Of a DNA stretch of 64,000 nt, positions 7,221-33,228 are shown in pieces (position 1 is the first letter of the stretch; each line of letters starts with the position of its first letter). The translations under genes were made by a program, and so were the position numbers. Source of the DNA: an uncultured Actinomycetes bacterium. GTDB lineage: Bacteria; Actinomycetota; Actinomycetes; Nanopelagicales; Nanopelagicaceae. The notes beneath the pieces were generated by a model. The model had not been told where the DNA came from. It did no database searches and worked only from the letters and a program-made list of their open reading frames with translations. The stretch is from contig CAIPAI010000043.1 in NCBI GenBank assembly GCA_903863015.1, positions 5,634 to 69,633 on the forward strand. The letters run 5' to 3'.

Positions 7221-7261
7221 GAAGACTCCTCACTAAGACTGTGGAGCCATCCTAACCCAGG

Positions 7262-8913: not shown

Positions 8914-8918
8914 CGGAT

Positions 8919-10052
8919 TTACTCTGTTTCGGCGAGGACATCGCCAGCATAGGCATCTTGCTTTGCATCAAGGGCAAAGGTGTGCGCCGGATCCCAAGAG
9001 ATACGAACCCGATCCCCCGCCATCACTTCTGATGCATCCACGTTCTGTTCGAACACAATGATTTTTTCATCATCAAGAAATCCTGGAATCTCCACGATGA
9101 ACTGAGTTGAAACGCCGATGTATGAACGTTCAAGAACCGTTCCCACTAGTTGGTTACCTAAGTGATCGTGCGCATGATTTGACTCCGCCGAGATGTAAAT
9201 CTTTTCCGGACGGACGCCAACCCATACTTTGGAATTTGAGGTAGCAACGCGGCTTGCGGGAATCTTGATCTGGTTCCCCCACACCTTGACTCCCACGAAG
9301 TCACCTCGTTCTACCACTTCACCTGTGAGCAAATTCGATTGCCCAAGGAAGTTAGCCACGAATGTGGTCCTCGGGTTTTCATAGAGGTCCATCGGGCTAC
9401 CGAGCTGCTCCACCTTGCCTTGATTCATGACCGCAATAGTGTCGGCCATAGTCATAGCTTCTTCTTGGTCATGAGTTACGTGCACGAAGGTGATGCCCAC
9501 TTCAGTCTGGATGCGCTTGAGCTCTAATTGCATCTGGCGACGAAGTTTAAGATCGAGTGCACCCAGTGGCTCATCTAGTAGAAGCACCTCGGGGCGATTG
9601 ATGAGTGCGCGCGCGAGTGCTACTCGTTGCTGTTGACCACCGGATAGTTGCGATGGCTTACGCCGCGCAAAGGCATCTAGTTCTACGAGTGAGAGCATGG
9701 CGTCAACTTGCGCCGACACATCTTTAATACCCCTGCGGCGTAATCCGAAAGCTACGTTCTCGTAGATGTCGAGGTGCGGAAAGAGTGCGTACGACTGAAA
9801 GACCGTATTAACCGGACGGTTGTACGGCTTGAGTGGGGCGATGTCATGATCGCCGATGAGGATCTGCCCAGCAGTGGGCAGTTCAAGACCAGCGACCATA
9901 CGAAGCGTGGTGGTCTTTCCGCACCCTGATGGACCGAGAAGTGCGAAGAAAGAACCTTTTGGAATCAGGATGTCGATGTCATCGACTGCAACGAAATCAC
10001 CAAACTCTTTGCGTAACGAGACAAGGCGAAGATCGCCGCCAATCTGATCCAT
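8919..10052 (-). CDS. potA: Spermidine/putrescine ABC transporter ATPase
   Basis: Walker A GPSGCGKTT, signature LSGGQQQRV, Walker B LLLDEP and a C-terminal TOBE-like domain are present. I prefer the ATG at 10052 (MDQIGG...), which overlaps the potD stop (ATGA), over the ORF-track start at 10088. Confidence 0.9.
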   Translation of the reverse strand: MDQIGGDLRLVSLRKEFGDFVAVDDIDILIPKGSFFALLGPSGCGKTTTLRMVAGLELPTAGQILIGDHDIAPLKPYNRPVNTVFQSYALFPHLDIYENVAFGLRRRGIKDVSAQVDAMLSLVELDAFARRKPSQLSGGQQQRVALARALINRPEVLLLDEPLGALDLKLRRQMQLELKRIQTEVGITFVHVTHDQEEAMTMADTIAVMNQGKVEQLGSPMDLYENPRTTFVANFLGQSNLLTGEVVERGDFVGVKVWGNQIKIPASRVATSNSKVWVGVRPEKIYISAESNHAHDHLGNQLVGTVLERSYIGVSTQFIVEIPGFLDDEKIIVFEQNVDASEVMAGDRVRISWDPAHTFALDAKQDAYAGDVLAETE

Positions 10053-11281
10053 CAGCCGCCCATCACCTTTGCATAAGCGTCTTGGCAAGACTTCTCGGTG
10101 GCTTCATCAAGACCGGCGAAGATATGAGCTTTAGCCAGAGTTGCCGCATCGGGGAAGATCAATGGATTACTAGCAAGAGCCGGATCAATCTTGGCGGCTT
10201 CCTCCTGCGCGCCATCTACCGGGCAGATGTAATTCACATAAGCAGCCACCTGCGCGGCAACCTTGGGATCGTAGTAATAGTTGATCCATGACTCGGCGTT
10301 CTTCTTATGCTTAGCACCATTGGGTACCTGCATGTTGTCTGACCAGAGCATGGCACCTGCATCAGGAATGACGTATTTGATCTTGTCGTTCTTCGCTTGG
10401 AGTTGAATAACATCACCAGACCAAGCAACACATGCTGCAATATTTCCCTTGGCAAGATCTGGTGCATACTCGTTTCCAGTGAACTTACGAATTTGGCCAG
10501 AATTAACTGCCTTCTGAATCTTTTCGATCGCTGCATCAAAATCGGCTTGATTAAAGACTGATGGATCCTTACCCATCGAAAGCAATACGAGGCCCATTGT
10601 GTCACGCATTTCAGAGAGGCAGGTTACTTTGCCTTTGAGATCAGGACGTGTGAAAAGTTCGTCGATAGTCATTACGGGCTTTGTAACTGCCCCGTTATAA
10701 GCGATGCCACCAAACCCTGATTGCCAAGGGGCTGAGTAATCGCGAGTGGCATCCCACGAAGGAGACTTGAGGGCTGCACGGAGATGCGCGTCAACGTTAG
10801 GGATGTTTGCCTTGTCGAGTTTTTGAACCCAACCCAGGCGAATCATCTTTGCTGCCATCCAGTCGGTGAGCACCATCAAATCACGACCCGTGTCTTGACC
10901 TGCGGCCAGTTGATTACGAACCTTGCCGAAGAAAACGTTGTTATCGCTGACATCTTCGGTGTATGCCACTTTGATCCCGGTGGCGGCGGTAAATGCGACA
11001 ACTGATGGACGAATCGACTCATCATTTGCATCGACATCGATGTAGAGCGGCCAGTTCGACACATTCAATGACTTGTCGGCATCCGATTGATCTGCTGTAG
11101 CAGGCGATGCTGAACCTTTAGTTTCGGCAGTGCCTTTAGTACCGCACGCGGCAAGGAATGCAGCGAGACCGACAGCTCCAGCGCCGGTGATTACTCCACG
11201 GCGGGTGACCTGGCTTGAGACGATCTTGCGCATCTCGGGTGTCAGTGACGCAACAGGCGGCAAGTTCTTCTCTTCTGACAT
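10052..11281 (-). CDS. potD: Polyamine ABC transporter substrate-binding lipoprotein (PotD/PotF-like) with a Tat-type signal
   Basis: 409-aa ORF. The N-terminus carries TRRGVITGAGAVGLAAFLAACG, a twin-arginine motif plus lipobox. A GAGGAG Shine-Dalgarno sequence lies upstream. Confidence 0.85.
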   Translation of the reverse strand: MSEEKNLPPVASLTPEMRKIVSSQVTRRGVITGAGAVGLAAFLAACGTKGTAETKGSASPATADQSDADKSLNVSNWPLYIDVDANDESIRPSVVAFTAATGIKVAYTEDVSDNNVFFGKVRNQLAAGQDTGRDLMVLTDWMAAKMIRLGWVQKLDKANIPNVDAHLRAALKSPSWDATRDYSAPWQSGFGGIAYNGAVTKPVMTIDELFTRPDLKGKVTCLSEMRDTMGLVLLSMGKDPSVFNQADFDAAIEKIQKAVNSGQIRKFTGNEYAPDLAKGNIAACVAWSGDVIQLQAKNDKIKYVIPDAGAMLWSDNMQVPNGAKHKKNAESWINYYYDPKVAAQVAAYVNYICPVDGAQEEAAKIDPALASNPLIFPDAATLAKAHIFAGLDEATEKSCQDAYAKVMGG

Positions 11282-11402
11282 GTCTACTCCTCAGCTCATA
11301 CCGGATCGATCAATCGTGATAGTACGGAGCCTAATCACTTAGAGCCCAGAATCCATCGATTCACTGGCCCTAATTCCGTCCGCGTAAGTGGGCGTAGAGA
11401 AA

Positions 11403-12932
11403 TTACTTGCGTGCACTCGCCGCGTGTTTACGGGTAGTGCCGCCAGCAATCCAGAAGACCACTCCCACCAGCACAAAGAAGAGAACTGGCACTGCCTCGG
11501 TGAAGAGGAACTTCCAGCGCTCTGATTGCTCCCAGCCATCTGGTCGGAAGTCATCACCAAACCAATCCACTCCTAGTCCTGGCGCCACCAATTGGAGAGA
11601 GGCGAAGGCCACGATCAGCGTGAGCCAGACCGAGAGGAACTTGGCCCAAGGTGCGCGGTAAGGACGTGGATGATCGGGGTGAGTGACCCGCAAGCGCCAG
11701 AGCGCAGGGAAAATTGCTAAGTATGAGAGCAAGGTAGTGGAGACCGCAATGCCAAGAACTGCAGTGAAGTACTTCATGGCATTGCCTTCACTGATGGTGC
11801 GTGCCATCACAAGAACTGCAGTCGAGAGCAGACCACTCAAAATGTTGACTCGCACTGGGGTTCCGTACTTTGCCGAGATCACTCCCAGTGAGCGGGGGGC
11901 CGCGCCGTCATAGCCGGAAACGGCGAGCGAACGATCAGACCCCATAATCCAGGTAACTCCTGAAGAGAGCACGCAGATGATGAAGAGGAGCCCGCCAATT
12001 CCACCGAGGAAAGCGCCAAAGCCGGTGAGGACAACTCCGTCAGCCCCGGTTGATCCACCGTAGATGGTGAAAACAGCCTTGATCGCGTCGAGGAAACCAC
12101 CGAGATTGGAGACATCTTGCGTGGGAAGCACCACGAGAATGCCAAGGATGGGCAGACCGTAAAGCAATACAGCTGCGATCGCGGCACGGAAGAGACCGTA
12201 GGGGATATCGCGACGCGGATCCTTCATCTCATCGCCGGCACTATTAGGAAGTTCGAATCCGACGTAATTAAAGAGCAGCACACCTGCGAGTGCAACCAGC
12301 CCAGCGAAGGAAATCCCGAAGTCGCCGACATGGACGCCATGAACGCCATTCTTAAATCCGTAGATGACTACCGATATGGAGAAGAAGCCAAGGAGGATGA
12401 ACCGAGCGAAGGCTCCAAAGGTAGGAATCCACTTGCCCACCTTGAAAGAAAGAATGGCGCTCGTGACACCAATCCAGATAAAGGCGAGAGTAAAGATGTA
12501 CCACCAAATATTTGACATCGGATGACCGTTGAGGAAGAAGGTCTCATACGCGGTCGCTCCAACAAGGGCGAGTGTGCCGCCGAGCCAGACTGGGTTCGTC
12601 ACCCAGTAGAGCACATTGTTGATCGCGGCAGCGAGCCGACCGAAAGCTAAGCGCGCCCAGAGATATGAGCCACCCTCTTGTGGGAATGATGTACCGAGTT
12701 CAGCGAAGAGAAGTGCTTGTGGCACAAAGAAGACGATGGCGAAGATGATTAACCAGGTAAATGCCTGAGCACCCGATGCCGCAACTGTTCCGATCGTATC
12801 GATTCCCACCAAAGTGCAAATGGTGAAGAAGAGAATGTCGTATCTACCGAAGTGCTTTTGCAAATGCGCAGTTTCAGTGAGTGCATCGGACGTGAGATCA
12901 AGCTCTTTAGCCAAGCCGCTATCTATGGACAT
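11403..12932 (-). CDS. APC-superfamily amino acid/polyamine permease
   Basis: 509-aa ORF with about 12 predicted hydrophobic segments and an APC-like N-terminus (FFTICTLVGIDTIG). Confidence 0.85.
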   Translation of the reverse strand: MSIDSGLAKELDLTSDALTETAHLQKHFGRYDILFFTICTLVGIDTIGTVAASGAQAFTWLIIFAIVFFVPQALLFAELGTSFPQEGGSYLWARLAFGRLAAAINNVLYWVTNPVWLGGTLALVGATAYETFFLNGHPMSNIWWYIFTLAFIWIGVTSAILSFKVGKWIPTFGAFARFILLGFFSISVVIYGFKNGVHGVHVGDFGISFAGLVALAGVLLFNYVGFELPNSAGDEMKDPRRDIPYGLFRAAIAAVLLYGLPILGILVVLPTQDVSNLGGFLDAIKAVFTIYGGSTGADGVVLTGFGAFLGGIGGLLFIICVLSSGVTWIMGSDRSLAVSGYDGAAPRSLGVISAKYGTPVRVNILSGLLSTAVLVMARTISEGNAMKYFTAVLGIAVSTTLLSYLAIFPALWRLRVTHPDHPRPYRAPWAKFLSVWLTLIVAFASLQLVAPGLGVDWFGDDFRPDGWEQSERWKFLFTEAVPVLFFVLVGVVFWIAGGTTRKHAASARK

Positions 12933-12967
12933 GCGCCAACCTCTTCTGGAGTAGTGATAGGAGGGTG

Positions 12968-14395
12968 TTACTCGCCGATATTGATCATGACGTGCTTGAT
13001 GCGGGTGTAATCCTCGAAACCGTACATAGAGAGATCTTTCCCGTATCCAGAATGCTTGAAACCACCATGCGGCATTTCAGCCACAATCGGAATGTGCGTA
13101 TTCACCCAAACAACGCCAAAATCGAGACCGCGAGACATGCGCATTGCGGTGCCATTGTCTTTAGTCCACACACTTGAAGCTAAGCCGTACTTCACATCAT
13201 TGGAGAAGGTAAGCGCCTCCGCTTCATTTTGGAATTTTTGTACAGTGACCACAGGTCCAAAGATTTCGTCTTGGATCATCTCGTCCTTTTGTTGCAAATC
13301 TGCAACGACCGTAGCCTCATGGAAATAGCCAGCGCGATCTACTTGATGTCCGCCAGTAACGACATTGGCGTGTGCAGGTACACGCTCCAAGAATCCCTTA
13401 ACGCGCGCTAATTGATTTGCATTATTGAGCGGTCCATAAAGAATCTCTTCATCAGGTGCGCCCGTCGTGGCGATTTCTTTGACCTTCTCTGCGAGCAGCG
13501 CTACGAAATCTTTATACGCCCCCGCTTCCACCATGACACGCGTGGCTGCGGTGCAATCTTGGCCAGCATTGAAGTAGCCGCCAATAGCAACACCTTCTGC
13601 GGCAGCTTCGAGATTAGCATCATCGAAAATGACAACCGGCGCTTTGCCTCCTAATTCGAGGTGGACGCGCTTCACATCTTTAGCAGCGGAGCCAGCAACT
13701 TCCATACCTGCGCGAACCGAGCCGGTAATGGAGACCATCTGCGGAATCTTGTGCTCCACCAGCGAGCGGCCGCTATCGCGGTCACCGCAAACTACGTTGA
13801 AGACACCAGGAGGCAAGAACTCCGCCATGATGTTTGCCATCCAGACGGTTGACGCTGGAGTGGTATCACTAGGCTTCAATACAACGGTGTTTCCGGCTGC
13901 AATTGCCGGCGCCCACTTCCATACGGCCATCATCATTGGGTAATTCCATGGCGTTACTTGCGCACACACACCAATGGGTTCGCGACGAATGATTGAAGTA
14001 TGTCCGCGCATGTACTCACCTGCGCTACGACCTTCGAGAATGCGGGCAGCGCCAGCAAAGAAGCGGATCTGATCAAGCATTGCGGGCATCTCTTCTGACA
14101 TGGTGATCGCCAGTGGCTTGCCGGTGTTCTCGCTCTCGATTGCAATCATTTCCTCGGCACGCGATTCAAATGCATCAGCAATCTTCAGAAGTGCCTTTTG
14201 GCGCTCAGCAGGAGTTGAATCGCGCCAGGACTCGAATGCGATCGACGCTGCGTTAATGGCATGGTCTACATCTGACGCGTTAGATATCGGCGCAGTGGCA
14301 TAGGGCTTACCGGTGACCGGGCTGATGAGCTCGCTGACATTTCCAGACTTACTGTCTAAAGCGAGGCCGTTGACGAAATTCTGAAGCTTCTTCAT
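12968..14395 (-). CDS. NAD-dependent aminoaldehyde dehydrogenase (gamma-aminobutyraldehyde/betaine-aldehyde dehydrogenase-like)
   Basis: 475-aa ORF. The ALDH catalytic motifs LELGGKAP and GQDCTAATR are present, and the N-terminus resembles PatD/YdcW. Confidence 0.9.
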   Translation of the reverse strand: MKKLQNFVNGLALDSKSGNVSELISPVTGKPYATAPISNASDVDHAINAASIAFESWRDSTPAERQKALLKIADAFESRAEEMIAIESENTGKPLAITMSEEMPAMLDQIRFFAGAARILEGRSAGEYMRGHTSIIRREPIGVCAQVTPWNYPMMMAVWKWAPAIAAGNTVVLKPSDTTPASTVWMANIMAEFLPPGVFNVVCGDRDSGRSLVEHKIPQMVSITGSVRAGMEVAGSAAKDVKRVHLELGGKAPVVIFDDANLEAAAEGVAIGGYFNAGQDCTAATRVMVEAGAYKDFVALLAEKVKEIATTGAPDEEILYGPLNNANQLARVKGFLERVPAHANVVTGGHQVDRAGYFHEATVVADLQQKDEMIQDEIFGPVVTVQKFQNEAEALTFSNDVKYGLASSVWTKDNGTAMRMSRGLDFGVVWVNTHIPIVAEMPHGGFKHSGYGKDLSMYGFEDYTRIKHVMINIGE

Positions 14396-14473
14396 GGATC
14401 TCCTTCTGAGTGCCTAGGCGTGAGAGTACGCGGAAATGGACCTTTTGGACACCACCCCAGGCGTAAAAGTAAG

Positions 14474-14509
14474 GAATCCGCAGATATTTGATCTTTTTGC
14501 TACGGATTC
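14474..14509. promoter_or_regulatory. Inverted repeat GAATCCG-N22(AT-rich)-CGGATTC in the divergent ALDH/lrp promoter region; candidate Lrp-type operator
   Basis: The arms lie at 14474-14480 and 14503-14509, flanking the AT-rich spacer cagatatttgatctttttgcta. A related dyad, GAATCcatcGATTC, lies upstream of potD at 11349-11362. Confidence 0.3.
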
Positions 14510-14546
14510 TTTTGCCTTTTGGCTCGAAGTCGGGCATTCTCGGGGC

Positions 14547-15047
14547 ATGTCGGCATCTAGCGTCCCCCGCGGCCTCGCCTTTACTAAGGCTCGCCCCGCC
14601 CGGGTCGCCCTCGATGACACCTCTAAATCCATCATCGAAGAGCTCCAGAGCGATGGCCGTAAGTCCTACGCCGCTATCGGGCTGGCTGTTGGACTCTCTG
14701 AAGCGGCTGTGCGCCAGCGCGTGCAGCGCCTCATCGACTCAGGTGTGATGCAGATCGTCGCTGTTACTGATCCGCTCACCGTGGGCTTTAACCGCATGGC
14801 CATGATCGGCATCAAAGTGGAGGGCGACCTTCAAGATGTTGCAGACCAACTCGCAACTTTCCCGGAAGTTGACTACGTAGTCGTCACGGCCGGTTCATTC
14901 GATTTACTCGCTGAAGTTATTTGTGAAGACGACGATCATCTTCTCGAACTGCTTCAACGCTTTAGAACAATCAAAACGGTGCGCTCAACCGAGAGCTTCG
15001 TTTATTTGAAACTGCAGAAGCAGTTATATAACTGGGGGACAAGATGA
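14547..15047 (+). CDS. Lrp/AsnC-family transcriptional regulator
   Basis: An HTH segment (SYAAIGLAVGLSEAAVRQRVQRL) is followed by a RAM domain. I prefer the ATG at 14547 (MSASS...). The ORF-track start at 14436 would add 37 non-homologous residues. Confidence 0.85.
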   Translation: MSASSVPRGLAFTKARPARVALDDTSKSIIEELQSDGRKSYAAIGLAVGLSEAAVRQRVQRLIDSGVMQIVAVTDPLTVGFNRMAMIGIKVEGDLQDVADQLATFPEVDYVVVTAGSFDLLAEVICEDDDHLLELLQRFRTIKTVRSTESFVYLKLQKQLYNWGTR

Positions 15048-16444
15048 GTATCTCACCACAGGATGTTGTCGAACATTTCGACGACAATCTTTCTAAACGC
15101 GCGACCGAACATATGTGGATGTACTTCTCTCGAATGGGCAGTTACCACGAGGGCGCTTCAGTTCCGATCATCGTGCGCGGTCAAGGTGCGTACATCTTTG
15201 ATGATCGTGGCCGACGCTACCTCGATGGCCTCTCCGGACTCTTCACTGTGCAGATGGGACATGGCCGCGAGGAACTGGCCGACGCTGCCTACAAACAAAT
15301 GATGAAGCTTGCCCACTTCCCTATTTGGGGCTACGGCAATCCCCCAGCCATAGAATTAGCTGAAAAGTTGGCAAGTTTGACTCCGCAAGGTTTGGATCGC
15401 GTCTTCTTCACTACCGCAGGTGGCGAAGCAGTTGAGAGTGCATTCAAATTAGTGAAGCAGTATTTCAAGATGACAGGTAAGCCACTCAAGCACAAAGTCA
15501 TCTCACGCTCGATTGCCTACCATGGCACGACGCAGGGCGCGCTCTCTATCACTGGTATTCCGGCGGCCAAGCAATGGTTTGAGCCACTCATTCCAGGAGC
15601 GCATAAAGTTCCGAACACAAACTTCTACCGCGCGCCAGAACACCTACAGAATGACATCAATGCATTTAGCGAGTGGGCTTCATCGCGAATTGAAGAAGCC
15701 ATCCTCATGGAAGGGCCCGATACAGTCGCGGCAGTGTTTGTTGAACCGGTGCAAAACTCCGGTGGATGCTTCCCGCCTCCCCCCGGCTATTTGCAGCGAG
15801 TTCGCGAAATTTGCGACAAATACGACGTCATCATGGTCTGCGACGAAGTCATCACCGCTTTCGGACGTATCGGTGATTGGTTTGCTAGCAATCGCTACGG
15901 CATCGTGCCCGACATCATCACTTGCGCCAAGGGAATGACCTCAGGTTATGCACCGATGGGAGCGATGATCGTCAACGAACGACTCTATGAACCATTTACC
16001 CAAGGCACCAATACCTTCCTTCATGGCTTCACTTGGGGCGGACACCCCATGGGTGCTGCCGTTGCGCTTGCGAATCTCGAGCTCATGGAGAAAGAGAAGA
16101 TCAACGAACACGTTCGTAGTAACGAGGACGCGTTTAAGAAGACTCTCGAGAAGCTTTACGATCTCGACATCGTCGGCGAGGTGCGCGGCACCGGTTACTT
16201 CTACGGAATCGAATTGGTACGCGACAAGAAGACTCGCGAGACTTTCACGGCCGAAGAGAGCGAGCGCTTACTTCGCGGATTCCTCTCCACGGCGCTCTAC
16301 GACGGTGGGCTCTATTGCCGCACCGATGATCGTGGAGACCCAGTGATTCAGCTCGCTCCCCCATTGATCTGCGACCAATCTCATTTTGATGAGATCGAGC
16401 AAATCTTGCGTGGCGCCCTCGTGGAAGCGATGAAGGTCGTTTGA
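15044..16444 (+). CDS. Class III omega-aminotransferase (putrescine/omega-amino acid:pyruvate-type)
   Basis: 466-aa ORF with DEVITAFGRIG and the PLP lysine in ITCAKGMTSGYAPMGA. Its start overlaps the lrp stop. Confidence 0.9.
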   Translation: MSISPQDVVEHFDDNLSKRATEHMWMYFSRMGSYHEGASVPIIVRGQGAYIFDDRGRRYLDGLSGLFTVQMGHGREELADAAYKQMMKLAHFPIWGYGNPPAIELAEKLASLTPQGLDRVFFTTAGGEAVESAFKLVKQYFKMTGKPLKHKVISRSIAYHGTTQGALSITGIPAAKQWFEPLIPGAHKVPNTNFYRAPEHLQNDINAFSEWASSRIEEAILMEGPDTVAAVFVEPVQNSGGCFPPPPGYLQRVREICDKYDVIMVCDEVITAFGRIGDWFASNRYGIVPDIITCAKGMTSGYAPMGAMIVNERLYEPFTQGTNTFLHGFTWGGHPMGAAVALANLELMEKEKINEHVRSNEDAFKKTLEKLYDLDIVGEVRGTGYFYGIELVRDKKTRETFTAEESERLLRGFLSTALYDGGLYCRTDDRGDPVIQLAPPLICDQSHFDEIEQILRGALVEAMKVV

Positions 16445-17082
16445 GTAAGCGCACACAGGTTCGTCGACTTCCCAAGAAAGCAGTCAACGATCGCGAAGTC
16501 ATGAATCAGATACTCGATGCCGCACTCGTTGCGCATGTGGCAATTGTCGATGACAAACAGCCATATGCGCTGCCGGTGGGCTTTGCTCGAGACGGAGATC
16601 GACTACTTCTTCATGGTTCGGCGGCGTCTCGTCTCTTCAAGAAACTTGCAGATGGAAAACCTTGCTGCGCCACTATCACCATCATGGATGGCCTAGTGAT
16701 GGCTCGTTCTGCCTTTGAATCTTCGATGCATTACAGATGCGTCATGGTCCTGGGTGAAGCAGTGGAGTTGCACGGCGACGAGAAGGTGGCTGCTTTCGAT
16801 CTGCTTGTGAAGGCTTTTATGCCAGGCAGAGAACTCGAAGTCCGCAAGAGCACAAAGAAAGAATTAAAGGCGACCACACTGGTCGCGCTCTCTCTCGATG
16901 AGGCGAGCGTCAAGGTTTCGAATTTCGAGCCAGGCGATCTTCCAGAAGATATGGACTCGCCACTGTGGGCCGGCATTATTCCCATTCAACACACCTTTGG
17001 AACCCCGCGCGATGCCGCAGATCTCAAGCCGGGAATTCCGGTACCTGGTTACATCGCAAAGTGGACCAACGGACGTACTTGA
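16441..17082 (+). CDS. Pyridoxamine 5'-phosphate oxidase-family (FMN-binding split-barrel) protein
   Basis: 213-aa ORF. Its TTG start overlaps the aminotransferase stop. The N-terminal pattern RRLPKKAVNDREVMNQILD...HVA is typical of the Pyridox_ox_2 family. Confidence 0.7.
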   Translation: MSKRTQVRRLPKKAVNDREVMNQILDAALVAHVAIVDDKQPYALPVGFARDGDRLLLHGSAASRLFKKLADGKPCCATITIMDGLVMARSAFESSMHYRCVMVLGEAVELHGDEKVAAFDLLVKAFMPGRELEVRKSTKKELKATTLVALSLDEASVKVSNFEPGDLPEDMDSPLWAGIIPIQHTFGTPRDAADLKPGIPVPGYIAKWTNGRT

Positions 17083-18476
17083 TGAACCTCTGGCTCGAGA
17101 CTCTTGATGCGCCGCTACAACATCGAGCTGGCATTATTGACGATCTCGATGTGGACATCGCGATCGTGGGTGGCGGATTCACTGGGCTCTGGGCCGCGCA
17201 CTTTCTCCGCAAAGAGATGCCCGGCGCAAACATCGTTGTACTGGAAAAAGAGTTTGTAGGTTTTGGGGCCAGCGGCCGAAATGGTGGGTGGGCATCGGCG
17301 CTCTATCCCGTCGCCTTCGATCGTCTAGTCATCGAAGTGGGCCAGGAACGCGCTCGAAATGTGCGGGAAGTGTGGCGCCGAAGCGTTCCTGAATTGGGCG
17401 CAGAATTGGCCGGACTCAGCATCGATGCCGGATTCTCATACGGTGGAAACATCACAGTGGCGCGCACCCAAGTACAAATGAAGCGCGTTGATGCGCAATT
17501 CCTAGCGGCCACGCATGCTGGTGAAGGCGCTGTGCGACTTTCGAAAGATCAAATGCAAGAACGTATCAATGTGAAAGACGCCGTAGGTGGTCTCTTTATA
17601 CGTGAGTGCGCCCGTATTCATCCAGCAAACGCGGTACGCGGTCTTGCTCATGCAGTCGAAAGGGCGGGCGTACGAATCTTTGAAGAGAGCGAAGTGCTCT
17701 CTTTGCGTCCGGGAACATCATCAGTAGCCAAAAAGGGAATCGTGAAAGTGCGACATCGCGGAACGATACGTCGCGTACATGCCACACATATCGTGGAAGC
17801 AACTGAAGGATTCCTTCCCTCCATTAATACACCAGCGCGCTCCAACCGCAGCGTTGTACCGGTCTACTCATTGATGACCGCTACGGAACCACTCTCTCCA
17901 GAAATCTGGAAGGAGATCGGGTGGAGTGGGAATGAAACGCTCGCGGAGGCAAGCCACCTCATTACATATGCTCAGCGCACGGCAGATAATCGCATCGCTA
18001 TTGGCGGACGAGGCGCCCCTTACTTCTTCAATTCAAAGATCTCTCCAGAACAAGATCGAGATCCAGTTGTTCATGGACACTTACGGGAATTGGCGCGTTC
18101 GTGGTTTCCACTCTTGCGCGATGTCAATTTCACCCATGCCTGGGGAGGTCCTTTGGGAATTTCCCGCGATTGGCACCCCACCGTCTCTTTCGATGAGACC
18201 AGTGGTTATGCGCGAGCAGGTGGATATGTGGGCGACGGCGTCACGAGTTCATATGTAGCCGGGCGCACCCTCGCCGACCTTATTTCCGGGAAAGAGAGCG
18301 AATTCACTCATCTCCCCTGGGTCAACCATCAAAGCCCTCAATGGGAAGGCGAACCCGTTCGCTGGCTGGCGATTAATGCCGGCCTGAAAGTGATGACATG
18401 GGCTGATCGTGAGGAGCGTCTCACCCATAGGGAGAGCCTCATTGCGCGTGCGATGGCTCCCCTGCTCGGCCATTAG
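17082..18476 (+). CDS. FAD-dependent amine oxidoreductase (DAO family, PuuB-like)
   Basis: The ATG at 17082 overlaps the preceding TGA. A Rossmann motif DIAIVGGGFTGLWAA is present. The ORF-track N-terminal extension (from 16965) overlaps the upstream gene. Confidence 0.85.
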   Translation: MNLWLETLDAPLQHRAGIIDDLDVDIAIVGGGFTGLWAAHFLRKEMPGANIVVLEKEFVGFGASGRNGGWASALYPVAFDRLVIEVGQERARNVREVWRRSVPELGAELAGLSIDAGFSYGGNITVARTQVQMKRVDAQFLAATHAGEGAVRLSKDQMQERINVKDAVGGLFIRECARIHPANAVRGLAHAVERAGVRIFEESEVLSLRPGTSSVAKKGIVKVRHRGTIRRVHATHIVEATEGFLPSINTPARSNRSVVPVYSLMTATEPLSPEIWKEIGWSGNETLAEASHLITYAQRTADNRIAIGGRGAPYFFNSKISPEQDRDPVVHGHLRELARSWFPLLRDVNFTHAWGGPLGISRDWHPTVSFDETSGYARAGGYVGDGVTSSYVAGRTLADLISGKESEFTHLPWVNHQSPQWEGEPVRWLAINAGLKVMTWADREERLTHRESLIARAMAPLLGH

Positions 18477-18488
18477 TAGACTCCACGT

Positions 18489-19658
18489 ATGGATCCAAAG
18501 AGCGCCTTAGACCTCCTTTCAATCGATCATCTCCTCAGCGACGAAGAGCGCGATATCCGCGACACCGTGCGCAAAGTAGTAGATGACAAAGTCCGCCCTT
18601 ATGTTGCGGACTGGTACGAGAAAGGCGATCTCCCAGCTCGCGAACTCGCAAGGGAATTTGGCAAGCTTGGCTTGCTAGGTATGCATCTTGAGGGTTACGG
18701 CTGCGCCGGCACTTCAGCAACCGCATATGGACTTGCCTGCATGGAATTAGAAGCCGGCGACTCAGGACTGCGATCGCTGGTCAGCGTGCAGGGTTCACTT
18801 GCCATGTTTGCCATCTGGAAGTTTGGTTCAGAAGAACAAAAGCAACAGTGGCTGCCCGGAATGGCAAGCGGCGAATTCATTGGCTGCTTTGGTCTCACCG
18901 AAGCCGACTACGGCTCCAATCCGTCCGGCATGATCACTCATGCAAAGCGCGATGGAAAAGATTGGGTGCTTAACGGTTCGAAGATGTGGATCACTAACGG
19001 TCCCATCGCAGATGTCGCAGTTGTGTGGGCACAGACCGAAGATGGTATTCGTGGTTTTGTTGTTCCCACCAAAACAAAGGGTTTCCAAGCCAACATCATT
19101 CATAAGAAACTCTCGCTCCGTGCTTCGATTACCGGCGAATTAGTCTTCACCGACCTGCGTCTTCCCGAAGATGCAGTGCTTCCTGGTGTTGTCGGGCTTA
19201 AGGGTCCAATGTCTTCGCTAAACGAAGCACGCTTCGGAATCCTCTACGGAACCGTGGGCGCCGCACGTGACTGCCTAGAAGTGGCTACCGATTATGCACT
19301 CTCCCGCATTCAATTCGATCGTCCGATCGCCGCCTTCCAACTCACGCAAGAGAAGTTGGCAAACATGGCACTCGAAGTACAAAAGGGTTTCTTGCTGGCA
19401 ATGCATCTTGGTCGCTTGAAAGATGAAGAGAAATTACATCCCGATCAGATCAGCCTAGGCAAACTCAACAACGTTCGCATGGCTCTCGAAGTGGCTCGCA
19501 TGTCACGCACCATCTTGGCTGCAAACGGCGTCACCCTCGAGTACCCGATCATGCGTCATGCCAACAACTTGGAATCGGTACTTACCTACGAAGGAACGAG
19601 CGAGATTCACCTTCTCACCATCGGACGCGCACTGACTGGCATTCAAGCCTTCAAGTAA
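18489..19658 (+). CDS. gcdH: Glutaryl-CoA dehydrogenase
   Basis: 389-aa ORF with long collinear similarity to GCDH: GYGCAG.S..AYGL, GCFGLTE...GS.PS.M, KMWITN, LGRLKD and YEGT..IH.L..GRA.TGIQAF. Confidence 0.88.
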   Translation: MDPKSALDLLSIDHLLSDEERDIRDTVRKVVDDKVRPYVADWYEKGDLPARELAREFGKLGLLGMHLEGYGCAGTSATAYGLACMELEAGDSGLRSLVSVQGSLAMFAIWKFGSEEQKQQWLPGMASGEFIGCFGLTEADYGSNPSGMITHAKRDGKDWVLNGSKMWITNGPIADVAVVWAQTEDGIRGFVVPTKTKGFQANIIHKKLSLRASITGELVFTDLRLPEDAVLPGVVGLKGPMSSLNEARFGILYGTVGAARDCLEVATDYALSRIQFDRPIAAFQLTQEKLANMALEVQKGFLLAMHLGRLKDEEKLHPDQISLGKLNNVRMALEVARMSRTILAANGVTLEYPIMRHANNLESVLTYEGTSEIHLLTIGRALTGIQAFK

Positions 19659-19747
19659 ACGGGGATATCCCGATCTGACAGCTCTCAACAAGGCGCATAC
19701 CTACCGGTGGCAGGAGAAACCGCGGGGAAATCGGCTAACCTGCTCCC

Positions 19748-21502
19748 ATGAAGAAGAGCGGAAAATTCCTCACCGGCATCGTCGCTGTTATTGCCCTGGT
19801 CGCGGCTGGAAGCGCGCGCGCCGAAGTAGTCGTCCCTGAAGATTTCGGCATGCAACCCATGTACGGAACCGTGGTCAGTGATGGCACGCTCTTCTCGAAC
19901 CAATCCGTTTCCAGCGTCTCGGCACACACTCCGCCTGACCAAACGACCGGCAAAGGCGGTGGTAATTGGGTCTGCAAGAATTTCGATGACCCAAATTGCC
20001 AAACACAATCCTGGATGGACGGAACGATCATCCTCTCCCCATGCAGCAAGACCACGGAACCAGTTTGTATCGACTCACTCTCAATTGGCAGAGATGGCGA
20101 AAAACTCTCTCCCGCTACCTTGGCATTTGAAGCCGTCTCGCAGAAGATTCCTGCAAGTCCTGCATCAGGGGTCCCAGCCGGTGGAAGTGCGAGTCTCTGG
20201 AAGAGTTCAGGAGTACCCAACGCCTTCGGAAGCAATGACTACTTAGTAGTGGTCGCGATGACGTATTCCAAGAATAAAGGTACGGAGAAGGCAACACTGA
20301 ACGGCTTCACTGCAAATGTACTTCCCGCTCAAGTAAGAACTGGTGATACCTACTACGCGGCTGAGAGCTTCACTGAAACCTCGAGCACCGGCATGCCGCA
20401 AGCAGGCGTGGGCTGGCGAGGTGCTCGCGGAATGATCAACCACAGCGAGTGCGAAATGACCACCGATGGATACTGCTTTATTCGTGAAGATTTCTCGGCG
20501 AATACCAAGGTGTCCATCAACTTACATTTGAATAACAGCCTCACCGGCTGGCTCTTTGGACGATTAAAGACTCCAACAATTTCCGTAAGCAAAATTTCTG
20601 ACTCAATCAACCAACTCACCGTTGAGGCCCTGCCCACTGTTGTGCCTAACTTGGTGGGCGCAGTTTTGAAATCTGATCTCTCTAAGAATCCAAAGATTGA
20701 CAACTATCTCAAAGGAAAGGGATACCCGGGCGAAATCGAGAACTACAACCGAATAGTCGGCACTAGTGGGTTTGATGGTTCCCTCGGAAGTGGCATGAAT
20801 AACCTCGAGCGTTTCAGAGTTTTCGAGGAAGTACTGAAGGTCTACTCAGGCAATGATTCGAGATTCCAGAAATTTACTCGCTGGACTTTTGGATCTACCC
20901 AATATGACGCAAGTGGCGCCGGTAGCGCGTGCTTTTCTGATAAAACCAAGTTGGTAGGTATCGTTACAACTAATTCACCGTTTTATGAATCGGGCCCTCC
21001 TAAGTTCAAAGATGATTCGTTAAACTATGTCGTTGCTGGACCGCACTTTGACGTGGATGGCAAGACGCTCTTCTCCGGTGTCTATGACTTGAATATGCGC
21101 TCTGAAGCCGCCCGCTGTCTCTACGGTTTCTCGTCGGCGCCGCTTAAAGCAGTTGTTTCGGTAACGTCTGCAGATGGCTCAACCCAAGATGTGCAGACCG
21201 AAGCTTTAAGTGAGAAGGATGGTTGGCTCCACCTCGGGGCGTACAACTTCCATTTCTCCCAGCCCACCATCCGCATCAAACTTTCACAAGAGAAGACCGT
21301 GGTGCCAACTCCTGCCGCTACGCCTACTTCCACCCCGAACGCTCCTGCGGCCACGACTCCTGCACCCAAGGCAAATGCGCCAGCCGCTCCGGCAATACCA
21401 AATAAAGCAAAGACCATCATTATCACTTGCGTGAAGGGGAAGACGACCAAGAAAGTAGTGGGCACCAACCCCACGTGTCCCGCCGGATATAAGAAGAAGT
21501 AA
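19748..21502 (+). CDS. Secreted protein of unknown function with a PA/PT linker and a C-terminal Cys-pair Lys-rich module
   Basis: 584-aa ORF with signal peptide MKKSGKFLTGIVAVIALVAAGSARA. I recognise no catalytic motif. The C-terminus reads ...PTPAATPTSTPNAPAATTPAPKANAPAAPAIPNKAKTIIITCVKGKTTKKVVGTNPTCPAGYKKK. Confidence 0.75.
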   Translation: MKKSGKFLTGIVAVIALVAAGSARAEVVVPEDFGMQPMYGTVVSDGTLFSNQSVSSVSAHTPPDQTTGKGGGNWVCKNFDDPNCQTQSWMDGTIILSPCSKTTEPVCIDSLSIGRDGEKLSPATLAFEAVSQKIPASPASGVPAGGSASLWKSSGVPNAFGSNDYLVVVAMTYSKNKGTEKATLNGFTANVLPAQVRTGDTYYAAESFTETSSTGMPQAGVGWRGARGMINHSECEMTTDGYCFIREDFSANTKVSINLHLNNSLTGWLFGRLKTPTISVSKISDSINQLTVEALPTVVPNLVGAVLKSDLSKNPKIDNYLKGKGYPGEIENYNRIVGTSGFDGSLGSGMNNLERFRVFEEVLKVYSGNDSRFQKFTRWTFGSTQYDASGAGSACFSDKTKLVGIVTTNSPFYESGPPKFKDDSLNYVVAGPHFDVDGKTLFSGVYDLNMRSEAARCLYGFSSAPLKAVVSVTSADGSTQDVQTEALSEKDGWLHLGAYNFHFSQPTIRIKLSQEKTVVPTPAATPTSTPNAPAATTPAPKANAPAAPAIPNKAKTIIITCVKGKTTKKVVGTNPTCPAGYKKK

Positions 21503-27442: not shown

Positions 27443-27952
27443 ATGAGACACCTCCCCGCCCACTTAATGATCGCTGGCACCTTGACCCTGGCTCCCGCCG
27501 GTCTGGCGCTCGCCTCCGCCACCCCGTCGCCCAGCGCGCCCCACACCCTGCACACGTGGCGCCTGCCGCTGGCTACTACCCAACTCCTTCGCCCGTTTAC
27601 CCCGCCGACCAGGCGTTATGGGCGCGGCCATCGAGGCGTGGATCTCACCGCCACGATCGGAAGCCCGGTCTGCGCCCCCGCCGATGGCACCCTCACCTTC
27701 GTCGGTCAGGTCAACCACGTGGCCACCGTGGTCCTCGCCCATGGCGCCGGATATCGCTCCACCTACCAATCCGTGACCTCGCGCTTGAAGGTGGGCACCA
27801 CAATCACCGCTGGTGAAGCCTTCGGCATAGTGAGCGCTTCCGGACATCTCGCAGGACCCACCTGCCTTCACTGGGGATTACTTCAAGGGCCCACCTATCT
27901 CGACCCGCTCTCGCTGCTGCCGCACTTGCAGACCCATCTCCTACCCTCTTAG
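27443..27952 (+). CDS. Secreted M23/LytM-family peptidase-like protein
   Basis: 169-aa ORF with a signal-like N-terminus. HRGVD is encoded at 27629-27643. The C-terminal motif reads CLHWG (27863-27877) where the canonical motif is HxH. Its position next to rpsB is conserved among actinobacteria. Confidence 0.8.
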
Positions 27953-27959
27953 CCGCAAG

Positions 27960-28122
27960 ATGCGGATCACATTCAGCGAGCATGCTCTTAAACGGATGGA
28001 GGAGCGAGATCTTTCTCCGCCAATCTTGGGTTCCAAGTTACGGTGAGTTAAAAGTCTGGGTCGATGCACTTCCGAATGAGCGAAATACGGTTACCGTAAT
28101 CTCGAACTCTTCGCCCCTCTGA
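27960..28122 (+). pseudogene. Decayed DUF4258-family toxin gene (frameshifted and shortened)
   Basis: The ATG at 27960 gives MRITFSEHALKRMEERDLSPP..., the characteristic DUF4258 N-terminus, then a stop at 28044-28046 after 28 codons. The +1 frame continues ...GELKVWVDALPNERNTVTVISNSSPL, which resembles the family's C-terminal beta-strand region. Confidence 0.35.
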
Positions 28123-28254
28123 GCCAGGCTCAAACTTCCCGACTCGTTTCTGATCTCGAACTTTCACCAGAGGTCGCGCTGGAATTGCGAGCTCGCTGCC
28201 AAGGCGCTCCGTGAAGGCTCGGCGGATCGCCAGGGTCGGCATTAGGCTGGGTGC

Positions 28255-31209
28255 ATGTCTGGAGCACCTCTCGATCCCGTTGAAACCGTTAAGAAATACT
28301 TCGGAATCGATGGGAGTGCCACGCAACTTAACGGCGAACGAGATCTCAATTACCGCATCACCACAGCAGTAGATGGCGCCACCCGAGACTATGTCTTAAA
28401 AATTCATCAACCTGGACATCGTGATTGGCTCTCGTTGCAAGATCGCGCGCTCACCGCACTCTCACATTTAGCGCCACACCTTCCCATCCCAGTGCGCGCA
28501 CTAGGTGGCGAAATATCGGTCGATATCCCCGGTGGTCGCACCGCACGTTTACTCACTTGGGTAGCGGGCAGCGCCTGGGCGGAAACCGAAACCACGAGCA
28601 CCGATCTGCGCGACCTCGGAACTATTTTGGGGCGTATTGATAAAGAACTCGCAAAGATGGAGATCACCGAACCCGTCGAAGAGATTCTGACTCGAGAATT
28701 TATGTGGAACATGATGCAGGCGGGTCGCCTCTCGCAACACGTGCATCGCATCACTGACGAAACGTTGCGAAATGTAGTCATCGAAGTACTTGAAGATTTC
28801 CGCGAAGAACAACTTCCAAAACTTGCGCTCTTACCGCGGCAGATGATTCATAACGATGCCAACGATTACAACATCTTTGTCAGCGAACGCGGCATCGGTG
28901 TGATCGACTTTGGCGACATCGTGCTTGGCGCCAAAATTATTGGCCTCGCAGTTGCAGCTTCGTACGCTGCCATCGGTCACGATGACCCAGTAAAAGCGCT
29001 TTTGCCACTTGTGCGCGGTTATCACATCACCTCACCGCTCTCCCCTAGTGAATTAGAGCTACTCCTGCCGCTCACTAAGGTGCGGCTGGCGATGAGCGTT
29101 GTGAACGCAGCCGTACAGAGTGCCGCAGACCCCACCAACGAATACTTAAACATCAGTCAGGGCGTTATCCCCGCGCTTCTCTTGCAATTGCATGCCACTG
29201 ATTTCAATCATTCACTTTTCCGCTTCCGCGATGCGTGTGGTTACGAAGGAAATCCCAACTCACGCGCCGTGCGTCAATACCTATCGACAGTGGCAAGGCG
29301 CGCAGACGTGGTTTGTCCACCATTTAAGGACCATAAGTACATCTACTTAGATTGGTCAGTTGAGAATACTTCCATCCCGCGATGGAGCGAAGATATCGCC
29401 AATCTCATGGCATCCAAAGGTGCAGATGTTGCGATTGGTCATTACTGTGAAAACCGAAATGTTTACCAAGGCGATGCTTACAACACAGCAAGCCCCAGTG
29501 CACGCACGATTCACTTGGGCGTCGATCTCTTTCTCCCAGCAGGTTCGCCCGTTTATTCCGCGCTCGATGGTGTAGTCGATGCCTTTAACGACAACAACAC
29601 CCCACTCGACTACGGCCCAGTCATTCTTCTGCGCCACGAAACCACCGAAGGCATTCCCTTCTGGACGCTCTATGGTCACCTCTCGCGCGAATCACTTCCT
29701 AAACTTTCAGTAGGAATGAAAGTCAACGCTGGCGATCAAATCGCCACCATCGGTCAAGAACACGAAAATGTTGGCTGGCCCCCACATACCCACTTCCAAC
29801 TGCTGACAGATCTTTGTGGCATGGGACTTGATGTGTATGGCGTAGCACCGAAGGATGAGATCTCGCTCTGGCGCAGCATCTCACCGAATCCCAACTTGGC
29901 GCTCGGAATCGCCAGTGGAACCGACGCACACGCACACCTTGCAACCGACGTCATTCGTGAAGATCGAACGACGGTGCTCTCGCGAAATCTCAGTCTCAAC
30001 TTCCGAACACCACTCGAGATAGTGCGCGGTGAAGGCGCATATCTCTACGACGTTAATGGGAAGGCCTATCTCGACCTGGTAAATAACGTGGCGCACGTCG
30101 GCCACGGACATCCCCGCGTGGTTGCCGCCGGGGCCGCGCAGATGGCCGCACTTAATACCAATACGCGCTACCTCCACCAAAATATTGTGGAATATGCCCG
30201 CGCACTTACCAGCACACTCCCGGATCCGCTGAGTGTGGTCTTCTTCGTGAACTCCGGAAGCGAAGCAAACGATCTAGCCATTCGCCTCGCTCGTGCACAC
30301 ACAAAAGCCCGCGGCTTCATCGCACTCAAGCATGCCTACCACGGTCATACCGCAAGTGTGGTCGACATCAGCCCTTACAAGTTCCTCGGCAAGGGTGGGC
30401 TAGGCGCGCCCGATCATGTGCGCGTAGCTAACCTTCCCGATCCTTATCGCGGGGTACACAAGGGCGAAGCGGCCGGCAGTCAATACGCCGCAGACTTTGC
30501 CGCCACACTCGCAGACCTCAATCAGCCACTCGCCGCGTTTATCTCAGAAGGCATCGTCAGCACTGCAGGACAAATCGTGCTCGCCGATGGATTCCTGAAG
30601 AACGCCTACGAACAAGTACGCGCCGTTGGCGGGCTTGCAATCGCAGATGAAGTGCAAATTGGTTTAGGTCGTGTGGGCAACAAATTCTGGGGATTTGAGT
30701 TGCACGATGTGGTGCCAGATATCGTCACCATGGGCAAGCCGCTCGGAAATGGTCACCCACTTGCCGCGGTTGTCACCACCCCCGAAGTAGCTGCTTCTTT
30801 CCATAACGGCATGGAGTACTTCAACACCTTTGGTGGCAATCCAGTGAGCGCAGCAATTGGTCTTGCGGTGCTAGAAGTTGTGCAAGATGGTCACCTCCAA
30901 GCCAATGCCATCAACATGGGTAAGTACCTCACTGATGGCGTGCGAGAGATGAGTAAGCGCCATTCAATGATTGGCGACGTGCGTGGATCCGGTCTCTTTA
31001 TCGGCGTGGAATTAATGCGCGACGAAAAACCAGCCACCGAAGAGATGGGCGACCTCATCGAGTACGCCAAAGAACGCGGCGTCTTCCTTTCGTGTGATGG
31101 CCCTGATAACAACGTGCTGAAGATCAAACCGCCCATGGTGCTCACTACCAAGGATGTTGATCTCTTCTTGAATATCTTCGACGAGGGTTTAGGCGCAGTT
31201 AAACGCTAA
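28255..31209 (+). CDS. Three-domain fusion protein: APH-type (hydroxylysine-kinase-like) phosphotransferase, M23/LytM-like domain, and class III PLP phospho-lyase/aminotransferase (ETNPPL/PHYKPL-like)
   Basis: 984-aa ORF without a signal peptide. The kinase domain carries [12 protein letters not shown] (His at 28849) and VIDFGD. The M23 domain carries IHLGVD (29512-29526), YGHLS and PHTHFQ (29785-29793). The C-terminal domain carries [11 protein letters not shown] and [19 protein letters not shown], with the PLP lysine at 30736-30738. Confidence 0.9.
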
Positions 31210-32184: not shown

Positions 32185-33228
32185 TCAAGCAGGCGCGAGT
32201 AGAAATGCGCCTCTACTATCGCGAACCACTGCGCCGAGCGCCATCAATTCTGCGAGGGCGGCGAAAGCTTGACTCACTTCGAGTGCACCTAAATGCGCCA
32301 ACTCTTCGGCGGTGATGCCTTGCCGGCGTGAGAGCAATGCTAAAAGCGGATGATCTACCCGTGGAATTTCTAACGGTGAAATAAGTGCAATGACATCTTC
32401 TACCTGAGTAATGAGATTTGCCACGTTCTCAGAGATGAGACGGTGCACCCCCGCTGACATGGGCGAAGTGATCGCTCCTGGAACGCCCATGACATAGCGA
32501 TGGAGTTCGGCTGCATCGAATGCGGTACGGAGGGAACCACTGCGCATCGCTGCTTCCACCACGATCGTTCCTTGCGAGAGCGCGGCTATCAGCCGATTAC
32601 GCACCAGGAATCGAGATCGAAAGGCGAAGGCTTGCGGACGCACCTCCGAGATAAGTAGCCCGCCTTCGGCTATTTGTGCAAAGAGGCGAGAGTGCGCCAC
32701 GGGATAACTACGACTCACGCCAGATGCAAGCACGGCGCAGGTGACACCGTTCGCGGCGAGCGCTCCACGGTGAGCGGCCGCATCGATACCAAAGGCGCCT
32801 CCACTGACGATCGCCAATCCGCGATCACATAATTGCGCCGCAAAATTTTCGGCGACCCGGACTCCGTAAGAGGTGGCCGTACGCGAACCTACGATCGCAA
32901 CAGAAGAAGCGAGTGTGCCTATTTGCCCACCGCCCACGACCGAGAGCGCAATCGGTGGAACCTGGAGATCATTCAACGCTACTGGCCAGTGCGCATCCGA
33001 TGGGATCAACAGATGCGCCCCAGACCGTCGCCACTCCTCTTCCAACTCGCTCTCATCTAAATCTTGGATAGCACGCGTTGCCACACTGGCCACTTCATGA
33101 AAGTGACCAGCACGTAATCGTTCTAGAGTCTCTGGCGCACCATGACGTTCGATGCTGGAGGCAATGTGGAGTAGACCTGGTTCGCAGATTGCCATCAAGA
33201 TGCGCCGGGCATCGTGTTCACTTCTCAT
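32185..33228 (-). CDS. dprA: DNA-processing protein DprA
   Basis: 347-aa ORF with the Rossmann-like core AIVGSRTATSYG...SGGAFGIDAAAHRGAL. Its start overlaps the comM stop. Confidence 0.9.
   Translation of the reverse strand: MRSEHDARRILMAICEPGLLHIASSIERHGAPETLERLRAGHFHEVASVATRAIQDLDESELEEEWRRSGAHLLIPSDAHWPVALNDLQVPPIALSVVGGGQIGTLASSVAIVGSRTATSYGVRVAENFAAQLCDRGLAIVSGGAFGIDAAAHRGALAANGVTCAVLASGVSRSYPVAHSRLFAQIAEGGLLISEVRPQAFAFRSRFLVRNRLIAALSQGTIVVEAAMRSGSLRTAFDAAELHRYVMGVPGAITSPMSAGVHRLISENVANLITQVEDVIALISPLEIPRVDHPLLALLSRRQGITAEELAHLGALEVSQAFAALAELMALGAVVRDSRGAFLLAPA

Follow-up and report, generated by a model that had tools for sequence, protein, structure and literature searches.

The gene at positions 28255-31209 (+) of a 64,000-nucleotide stretch of DNA from an uncultured freshwater actinobacterium (contig CAIPAI010000043.1; the whole stretch is called the window below) encodes a protein of 984 residues in which a kinase of the APH fold, an M23/LytM zinc-peptidase domain and a phospho-lyase dependent on pyridoxal phosphate (PLP) follow one another. 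As judged from the sequence, three intact and conserved catalytic sites are combined in this single cytoplasmic polypeptide. The preferred reading, to which a probability of roughly 0.6 is given, is that the gene product is a self-contained cytoplasmic catabolic enzyme of the PRK06148 family, whose kinase and lyase steps would be preceded by an amidohydrolase step performed by the M23 domain. The architecture itself is already catalogued; the genuine question lies in the job of the M23 domain.

The open reading frame (ORF) runs without interruption from an ATG at its first possible start codon. Pfam matches, all well above threshold, place APH at residues 26-257 (E 6.9e-19), Peptidase_M23 (PF01551) at residues 419-517 (E 6.8e-16, 58.7 bits against a gathering score of 28.7) and Aminotran_3 at residues 586-976 (E 1.9e-77), in this order within one polypeptide. 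No signal peptide, membrane segment or N-terminal hydrophobic segment was found in the 984 residues by a 19-residue hydropathy scan, the maximum of which (2.0) falls in a kinase-domain helix that is modelled with confidence, and the cytoplasmic location of the protein is confirmed. The original prediction, made from the letters of the window, had proposed a single uninterrupted ORF that joins three modules and has no signal peptide. It is borne out by the reading frame, the profile matches and the hydropathy scan, and the positions that it gave for four motifs (HNDANDYN from 28849, HLGVD at 29512-29526, HTH at 29785-29793 and the PLP lysine at 30736-30738) are all exact. The AlphaFold2 model of the full-length protein has a mean pLDDT of 85.6 and a pTM of 0.83, and the latter suggests a compact, fixed arrangement of the three domains. 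The base composition of the gene does not differ from that of its flanks.

Conservation was assessed in an alignment of 179 non-identical full-length homologues, which are 38-100% identical to the window protein and span Actinomycetota, Alphaproteobacteria, Acidobacteriota, Desulfobacterales, Bacteroidota, Chloroflexota and Planctomycetota. In this alignment hardly any variation is seen at the three active sites (Table 1). Among the 49 sequences of the most distant bin, identity to the window protein is 49% in the M23 core, 54% in the PLP domain and 32% in the kinase. The share of invariant columns is about four times as high in the M23 core (10.5%) as in the kinase (2.6%). By these measures, the M23 module is constrained at least as strongly as a bona fide enzyme domain, the residues needed for catalysis included.

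The grouping of the C-terminal domain with the phospho-lyases, and not with transaminases, racemases or decarboxylases, is supported by both sequence and predicted structure. The domain matches human ETNPPL (6tor) with E 2e-128 and 433 bits (49-51% identity) and the Arthrobacter phospholyase A1RDF1 (5g4i) with E 5.7e-94 and 319 bits; the best solved relative that is not a lyase, a racemase, is found at E 2e-57, and no other solved enzyme scores above 198 bits. A Foldseek search with the AlphaFold2 model gives the same ranking, with a TM-score of 0.90 to 6tor. The earlier assignment to an ETNPPL/PHYKPL-like type is upheld by these values, and the outcome that was to have overturned it, clustering with ordinary transaminases, did not occur: the domain is 51% identical to ETNPPL as against 28% to the two other class III enzymes of the window.

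The HxDxxxxN catalytic loop and the metal-binding aspartate of the APH fold are in place in the kinase module. Taken alone, this module resembles only generic small-molecule kinases in NCBIfam. Its standalone homologues of about 340 residues carry the JGI label 'hydroxylysine kinase', and an animal HYKK, that of the bee, matches it with E 3.4e-8 and 26% identity at 85% coverage. The roles presumed for K49 and expected of D798 in Table 1 are drawn by analogy from the protein-kinase-like fold and from fold-type I enzymes, respectively. Because the PLP domain groups with phospho-lyases and the kinase is homologous to HYKK, the kinase-then-lyase route in one polypeptide that had been put forward for this protein is the natural reading, and chemistry of this kind is considered probable on the grounds of homology. 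By homology, the kinase would use ATP to phosphorylate the hydroxyl group of a vicinal amino alcohol, in which the adjoining carbon carries a primary amine. By close homology to characterised enzymes, the PLP domain would bind the amine as an aldimine and eliminate phosphate, and the products would be phosphate, ammonia and an aldehyde or ketone, as with ETNPPL and PHYKPL. The two activities are coupled by fusion here, and by adjacent genes of two-gene operons elsewhere.

M23 enzymes are known as secreted cell-wall hydrolases. The module described here is not in this typical extracytoplasmic location, for a signal peptide is lacking and its neighbours in the polypeptide are an ATP-dependent and a PLP-dependent domain. 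Its zinc site had been thought to be intact, and closer comparison agrees: in a residue-by-residue alignment with LytM and StM23 all five active-site positions match, with HLGVD, YGHL and HTH at the ligand and catalytic positions of LytM and PHTHFQ aligned with PHVHFQ. The aligned LytM positions are taken here to be the zinc ligands H210, D214 and H293 and the catalytic H260 and H291. A separate model of residues 341-559 (pLDDT 93.9) matches M23/LytM structures only, with target-normalised TM-scores of 0.57-0.74 for the isolated catalytic and LytM domains that were checked. The conserved segment from Y397 to R401, which precedes the core, corresponds by eye to the F-G-x-R segment of canonical M23 proteins. 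Because the conserved set includes two histidines that are presumably catalytic and not ligands, the pattern of conservation argues for a catalytic role of the domain over that of a scaffold.

If catalytic, the M23 domain would act first in the pathway. It would be a zinc amidohydrolase acting on the amide or peptide bond of a small conjugate taken up by the cell, by which the amino alcohol, or its amine, would be freed for the kinase and lyase sites. This step is proposed because of the conservation of the domain and the company of its free-standing relatives only, and a catalytic M23 domain in the same pathway as the kinase and the lyase is put forward tentatively.

The cytoplasmic module belongs to a distinct M23 subtype, marked by additional conserved segments. 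This subtype has 317 clusters at E<=1e-30 in a library of 1.8 billion representatives, and reading of the best 150 of the 317 gave about 80 of the fusion type and about 35 free-standing proteins of about 200-290 residues. The free-standing relatives (210-265 residues, without signal peptides) have in common the segments G-x-Y-x-E-x-R, D-Y-G-P and N-G-x-W-x-P-H-x-H-x-Q. Three genuine gene contexts of such proteins could be read (L086 6925-8699; L089 2398-7271; L083 8001-9145). In one, the gene follows that of an M14 carboxypeptidase with an overlap of 4 bp. Another is a string of S9 peptidase, Amidohydro_3, M23 and GST genes, with arginase, M20 and D-amino-acid-oxidase-type genes nearby. In the third, from Thalassospira, a DUF1491 gene comes next. 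Overlapping operons with other peptidases or amidohydrolases are thus present in two of the three, and the free-standing proteins may be an unrecognised family of intracellular hydrolases. A bolder and more doubtful proposal is that the module of the fusion protein would be the first known case of an M23 branch that works in cytoplasmic metabolism. As an active zinc amidase, it would release an amino alcohol from its amide linkage. Candidate substrates would be an N-acyl ethanolamine, or 5-hydroxylysine that is bound in a peptide or acylated at N-epsilon and stems from cell-wall or collagen-like material. Were this true, deconjugation, phosphorylation and elimination would all take place within one polypeptide.

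Several observations weigh against a self-contained catabolic enzyme with an upstream M23 step. Operons of a kinase and a lyase without M23 exist, and the M23 step is therefore not intrinsic to the chemistry. A search of the literature found no measured activity and no biochemical study of any bacterial three-domain member. The fusion gene of the window stands alone amid housekeeping genes, its neighbourhood is not conserved across phyla, and the lysine-type matches of neighbouring genes in other genomes are all below curated cut-offs. Animal HYKK resembles the kinases of two-gene operons no less than the fused kinases; hydroxylysine specificity therefore cannot be transferred.

Among the alternatives, the one that survives best, although it is considered unlikely, leaves the kinase and the lyase as described and takes the M23 domain for a non-hydrolytic, zinc-stabilised module with a structural, oligomerising or regulatory function, which would hold the kinase against the dimeric PLP domain or sense a ligand. 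M23/LytM domains can act as non-catalytic partners, and EnvC and DipM are among the structural matches of the modelled module. The chemistry can do without an M23 domain, as the two-gene operons show, and the high pTM suggests that the domain is tightly packed between the other two. Known non-catalytic LytM domains, however, have lost their metal and catalytic residues, and the alternative is weakened because these are kept here: all five M23 residues, including the two histidines that are not ligands, are retained across phyla. The M23 core is, moreover, more conserved than the kinase, and close free-standing relatives are found beside other hydrolases, where a scaffold makes little sense.

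That the M23 domain is an active peptidase with an unrelated substrate, for example in general cytoplasmic peptide turnover, and was fused for co-expression only, is quite improbable. It would agree with the occurrence of free-standing relatives in the midst of genes for general peptide and amino-acid catabolism, where a kinase or lyase gene is absent from the vicinity. The insertion of M23 between kinase and lyase is, however, fixed across many phyla; in all 78 metagenomic loci with the module, it lies in the same ORF as the kinase, the PLP domain or both; and the compact predicted fold would be unusual for a functionally unrelated passenger.

It is highly improbable that the protein acts in the biosynthesis or modification of an aminated compound, with an ordinary aminotransferase or racemase at its C-terminus. 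The NCBI name of the protein is only 'aminotransferase class III-fold PLP-dependent enzyme', and many transaminase models of NCBIfam match it significantly, but every one of these matches is far below the cut-off of the model. The scores of the two phospho-lyases exceed those of all other solved enzymes, and ETNPPL shares almost twice as much identity with the domain as do the transaminases of the same genome.

The fusion is real and not an assembly artefact, because the identical 984-residue protein is recorded on three contigs and because M23 and Aminotran_3 are present in all of the best 120 of 2603 relatives, most of which also have a detected APH domain. A chimeric contig, or adjoining genes merged by a sequencing error, is already excluded: the sequence is metagenome-derived, and long-read assemblies do contain copies of this gene family that are distorted by frameshift errors, but the errors seen split the gene and do not join genes, and complete genomes of cultured bacteria contain the same uninterrupted architecture. 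Apparent split operons with separate kinase, M23 and PLP genes (L085 6901-9985, L087 4916-7870 and L088 4901-7970) were rejected because their tblastn pieces are contiguous in the query but jump reading frames; these are frameshifted fused genes from long-read metagenome assemblies. Frameshifted pieces are also on record as separate 'APH', 'M23' and 'Aminotran_3' proteins (P0147, P0148 and P0155), which mimic split operons and free-standing M23 proteins. Two apparent two-domain forms, P0254 and P0249, are likewise unreliable: the first has an internal deletion, and the second breaks off after M23.

As to the substrate of the kinase and lyase, a 5-hydroxylysine-like basic amino acid is a tentative candidate, ethanolamine or 1-amino-2-propanol is an equally tentative one, and a compound of some other kind is almost as likely. 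Gene neighbourhoods give weak hints of a lysine-like or other substrate derived from a basic amino acid. An OCD/mu-crystallin gene lies directly upstream of the fusion in nine loci from at least three phyla. In the acI clade (66% identity), the neighbours also include genes for a thiamine-pyrophosphate (TPP) enzyme, an aldehyde dehydrogenase, an acyl-CoA dehydrogenase and a family III CoA-transferase. Against NCBIfam, the aldehyde dehydrogenase matches piperideine-6-carboxylate dehydrogenase best, and the CoA-transferase succinate-glutarate CoA-transferase; these are enzymes of lysine catabolism, and both matches are below cut-off. For the acyl-CoA dehydrogenase, glutaryl-CoA dehydrogenase is only the third-best match, likewise below cut-off. 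The fusion gene of S. meliloti comes after genes for a transporter with a Lys/Arg/Orn-type binding protein and for a short-chain dehydrogenase/reductase (SDR), and that of Aestuariispira has a divergent AsnC/Lrp regulator.

Table 1. Features of the fusion gene (positions in the window; conservation among the 179 homologues) and of the two S. meliloti 1021 loci (positions in the sequences named)
Feature	Position	Strand	Evidence or context
Whole gene, kinase-M23-PLP lyase fusion, 984 aa	28255..31209	+	NF004799, 1131.2 bits, residues 11-983
N-terminal APH-fold small-molecule kinase module, residues 1-345	28255..29289	+	Pfam APH; standalone homologues
K49 (VLKIH), presumed ATP-binding lysine	28399..28401	+	Lys in 177/179, Arg in 2/179
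Catalytic loop H199-N-D201-A-N-D-Y-N206 (HNDANDYN)	28849..28872	+	D201 and N206 in 179/179; H199 in 164/179
IDFGD (217-221), metal-binding Asp motif	28903..28917	+	D218 and D221 in 179/179
M23 module in the form also found free-standing, residues 341-559	29275..29931	+	Free-standing homologues 40-50% identical over 85-95%
Y397-C-E399-N-R401, conserved segment preceding the M23 core	29443..29457	+	E399 and R401 in 179/179 and in free-standing relatives
HLGVD, H420 and D424 as putative first two M23 zinc ligands	29512..29526	+	Aligns with HYGVD of LytM; both in 179/179
H475 (YGHL), counterpart of the mid-domain catalytic His of LytM	29677..29679	+	Alignment with LytM (YMHN); His in 177/179
HTH, H511 (putatively catalytic) and H513 (putative third zinc ligand)	29785..29793	+	Aligns with HVH of LytM; both in 179/179
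Class III PLP domain of phospho-lyase type, residues 586-976	30010..31182	+	Pfam Aminotran_3, E 1.9e-77; likeness to ETNPPL
D798 (ADEVQ), expected partner of the PLP pyridine nitrogen	30646..30648	+	Invariant, 179/179
K828, PLP Schiff-base lysine	30736..30738	+	Invariant, 179/179; motif aligns with MGKPMGNGHP of ETNPPL
S. meliloti 1021 pSymB fusion	1203427-1206378 (L176 8935-11961)		Behind LAO-type transporter and SDR
S. meliloti pSymA two-gene kinase and lyase operon	L181 5929-8297		With SDR, GntR and ABC transporter

In the window, the fusion gene lies between a small gene for a secreted-type M23 protein, which is next to rpsB, and xerC. This place had been described as a variable slot. The position does differ between clades, but five close relatives (93-96% identity) keep the same place: the fusion adjoins xerC in all five, and rpsB is retained in each of the three whose contig reaches upstream. 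No empty slot between rpsB/M23 and xerC was found for comparison. A universal gene neighbourhood was rejected, as the partners seen in 147 pooled loci were all specific to particular lineages. The secreted-type M23 protein encoded next to the fusion (27443-27952; Pfam E 2.1e-15) retains HRGVD, but by eye it has STYQS and CLHWG at the canonical positions of the catalytic histidines, so that the exported copy looks less canonical than the cytoplasmic one. Its gene was rejected as the source of the cytoplasmic module, with which it shares only generic family similarity. The 300-bp spacer at 27953-28254 contains an ORF of 29 codons (27961-28050; MRITFSEHALKRMEERDLS...) that looks, by eye, like the start of a DUF4258-type toxin, and an antisense ORF of 92 residues (28048-28326) has no match in Pfam or NCBIfam. 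The decayed toxin-antitoxin material of the original prediction did not hold up, as the 29-codon ORF alone is toxin-like, and that by eye.

A cluster for amine and amino-acid catabolism occupies positions 5877-21502 of the window and is separated from the fusion gene by housekeeping genes. It includes a GABA transaminase, an APC-family transporter, an Lrp/AsnC regulator, an omega-aminotransferase, a pipecolate-oxidase-like flavoenzyme, an acyl-CoA dehydrogenase and an aminobutyraldehyde dehydrogenase, the last above its NCBIfam cut-off. The acyl-CoA dehydrogenase of this cluster shares 62% identity with that encoded beside the acI homologue of the fusion. The dprA gene (32185-33228) is a near neighbour of the fusion, at a distance of one to three genes, in two clades: in the actinobacterial clade of the window, on the opposite strand and after xerC, and in a soil clade (L107, L116, L123, L148, L151 and L159), on the same strand and before topA; this proximity is probably a coincidence. 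In 17 soil loci the gene immediately upstream of the fusion encodes an exported protein with repeats, for which neither a family nor a structural match was found; it was set aside as probably irrelevant.

The three-domain architecture is not new. It is that of a catalogued, widespread and previously noticed family, PRK06148 of NCBIfam (NF004799, 'hypothetical protein'), of which the window gene is another member. The score of 1131.2 bits exceeds the cut-off of 1128 by a small margin, and the match is end to end, with residues 11-983 on model positions 19-1012 of 1015. The orthologue on pSymB of S. meliloti 1021 (1008 residues) shares 46% identity with the window protein over 98% of the length, and its score against the family model is 1468 bits. 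A scan of species-representative genomes gave 79 loci, nearly all with the full architecture. In a scan of metagenomes at least 600 stretches matched; 80 loci were kept, and a script found the M23 module in 78 of them, always in an ORF with similarity to the kinase, the PLP domain or both. Veiga-da-Cunha et al. (J Biol Chem 2012) are said to have used bacterial 'bi- or tri-functional' fusions of just this type to arrive at the functions of the animal proteins AGPHD1/HYKK and AGXT2L1/2. In a 2025 review, the 2012 study is cited as a case of function revealed through gene fusion. According to a 2021 paper, ETNPPL and a close relative were then the only known class III phospho-lyases; the paper itself describes a new ammonia-lyase, PbfA.

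Two-gene operons in which a kinase gene precedes that of a class III enzyme, without M23, were found in Azospirillum, Rahnella, Klebsiella, on pSymA of S. meliloti and on a metagenomic contig, typically together with a GntR regulator, an SDR oxidoreductase and an ABC transporter for amines or amino acids. S. meliloti carries both forms, the M23-containing fusion on pSymB and the M23-less operon on pSymA, a convenient natural pair for genetics. Human ETNPPL is 51-54% identical to the lyase domains of the M23-containing fusions as against 37-47% to the lyases of two-gene operons. Between the fusions and the two-gene operons, the identity of the lyases is 38-46%, lower than the values between ETNPPL and the fusions, which hints that the animal phospho-lyases arose from the fused lineage.

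By a kinase and phospho-lyase route, amino alcohols such as ethanolamine are broken down without vitamin B12 or a microcompartment. The fusion family is abundant in freshwater acI actinobacteria, soil metagenomes and rhizobia, and may be a significant sink for nitrogen-rich small molecules. A conserved, apparently catalytic M23 domain inside a cytoplasmic metabolic enzyme would extend the known uses of the M23 fold, and its role, once identified, would reveal the natural substrate of the family. Since the gene is present in the genetically tractable S. meliloti 1021, the question of the M23 domain is directly testable.

The fold and the five active-site residues of the M23 module are those of the LytM/lysostaphin-type endopeptidases, but these are secreted or periplasmic and cut cell-wall peptides, whereas the module of the window protein has no signal peptide and is enclosed between ATP- and PLP-dependent domains. 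The Arthrobacter aurescens enzyme A1RDF1 (5g4i), deposited as a phospholyase, is likewise of class III and is the second-best solved relative of the lyase domain (about 40% identity), but it consists of a single domain with neither a kinase nor an M23 domain fused to it. In the bacterial two-gene operons the kinase precedes the lyase, as in the fusion, and an SDR gene, frequent in them, is also found before the fused gene of S. meliloti; they lack M23, and their lyases are only 41-46% identical to that of the window, less than human ETNPPL. Systems of this kind presumably include those of Erwinia and Pseudomonas, with an amino-alcohol kinase and an O-phosphate phospho-lyase, and the aminopropanol pathway of mycobacteria. 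The same two chemical steps would be performed in animals by HYKK and PHYKPL/ETNPPL, and the lysine motif of ETNPPL is that of the window lyase; the animal enzymes are separate proteins without M23, and the likeness of HYKK to the window kinase is weak (26%). A counterpart of the whole protein is the PRK06148 protein encoded on pSymB of S. meliloti 1021: its gene has a transporter and an SDR for neighbours whereas that of the uncultured freshwater actinobacterium lies amid housekeeping genes, but the protein, like that of the window, has the same three domains in the same order.

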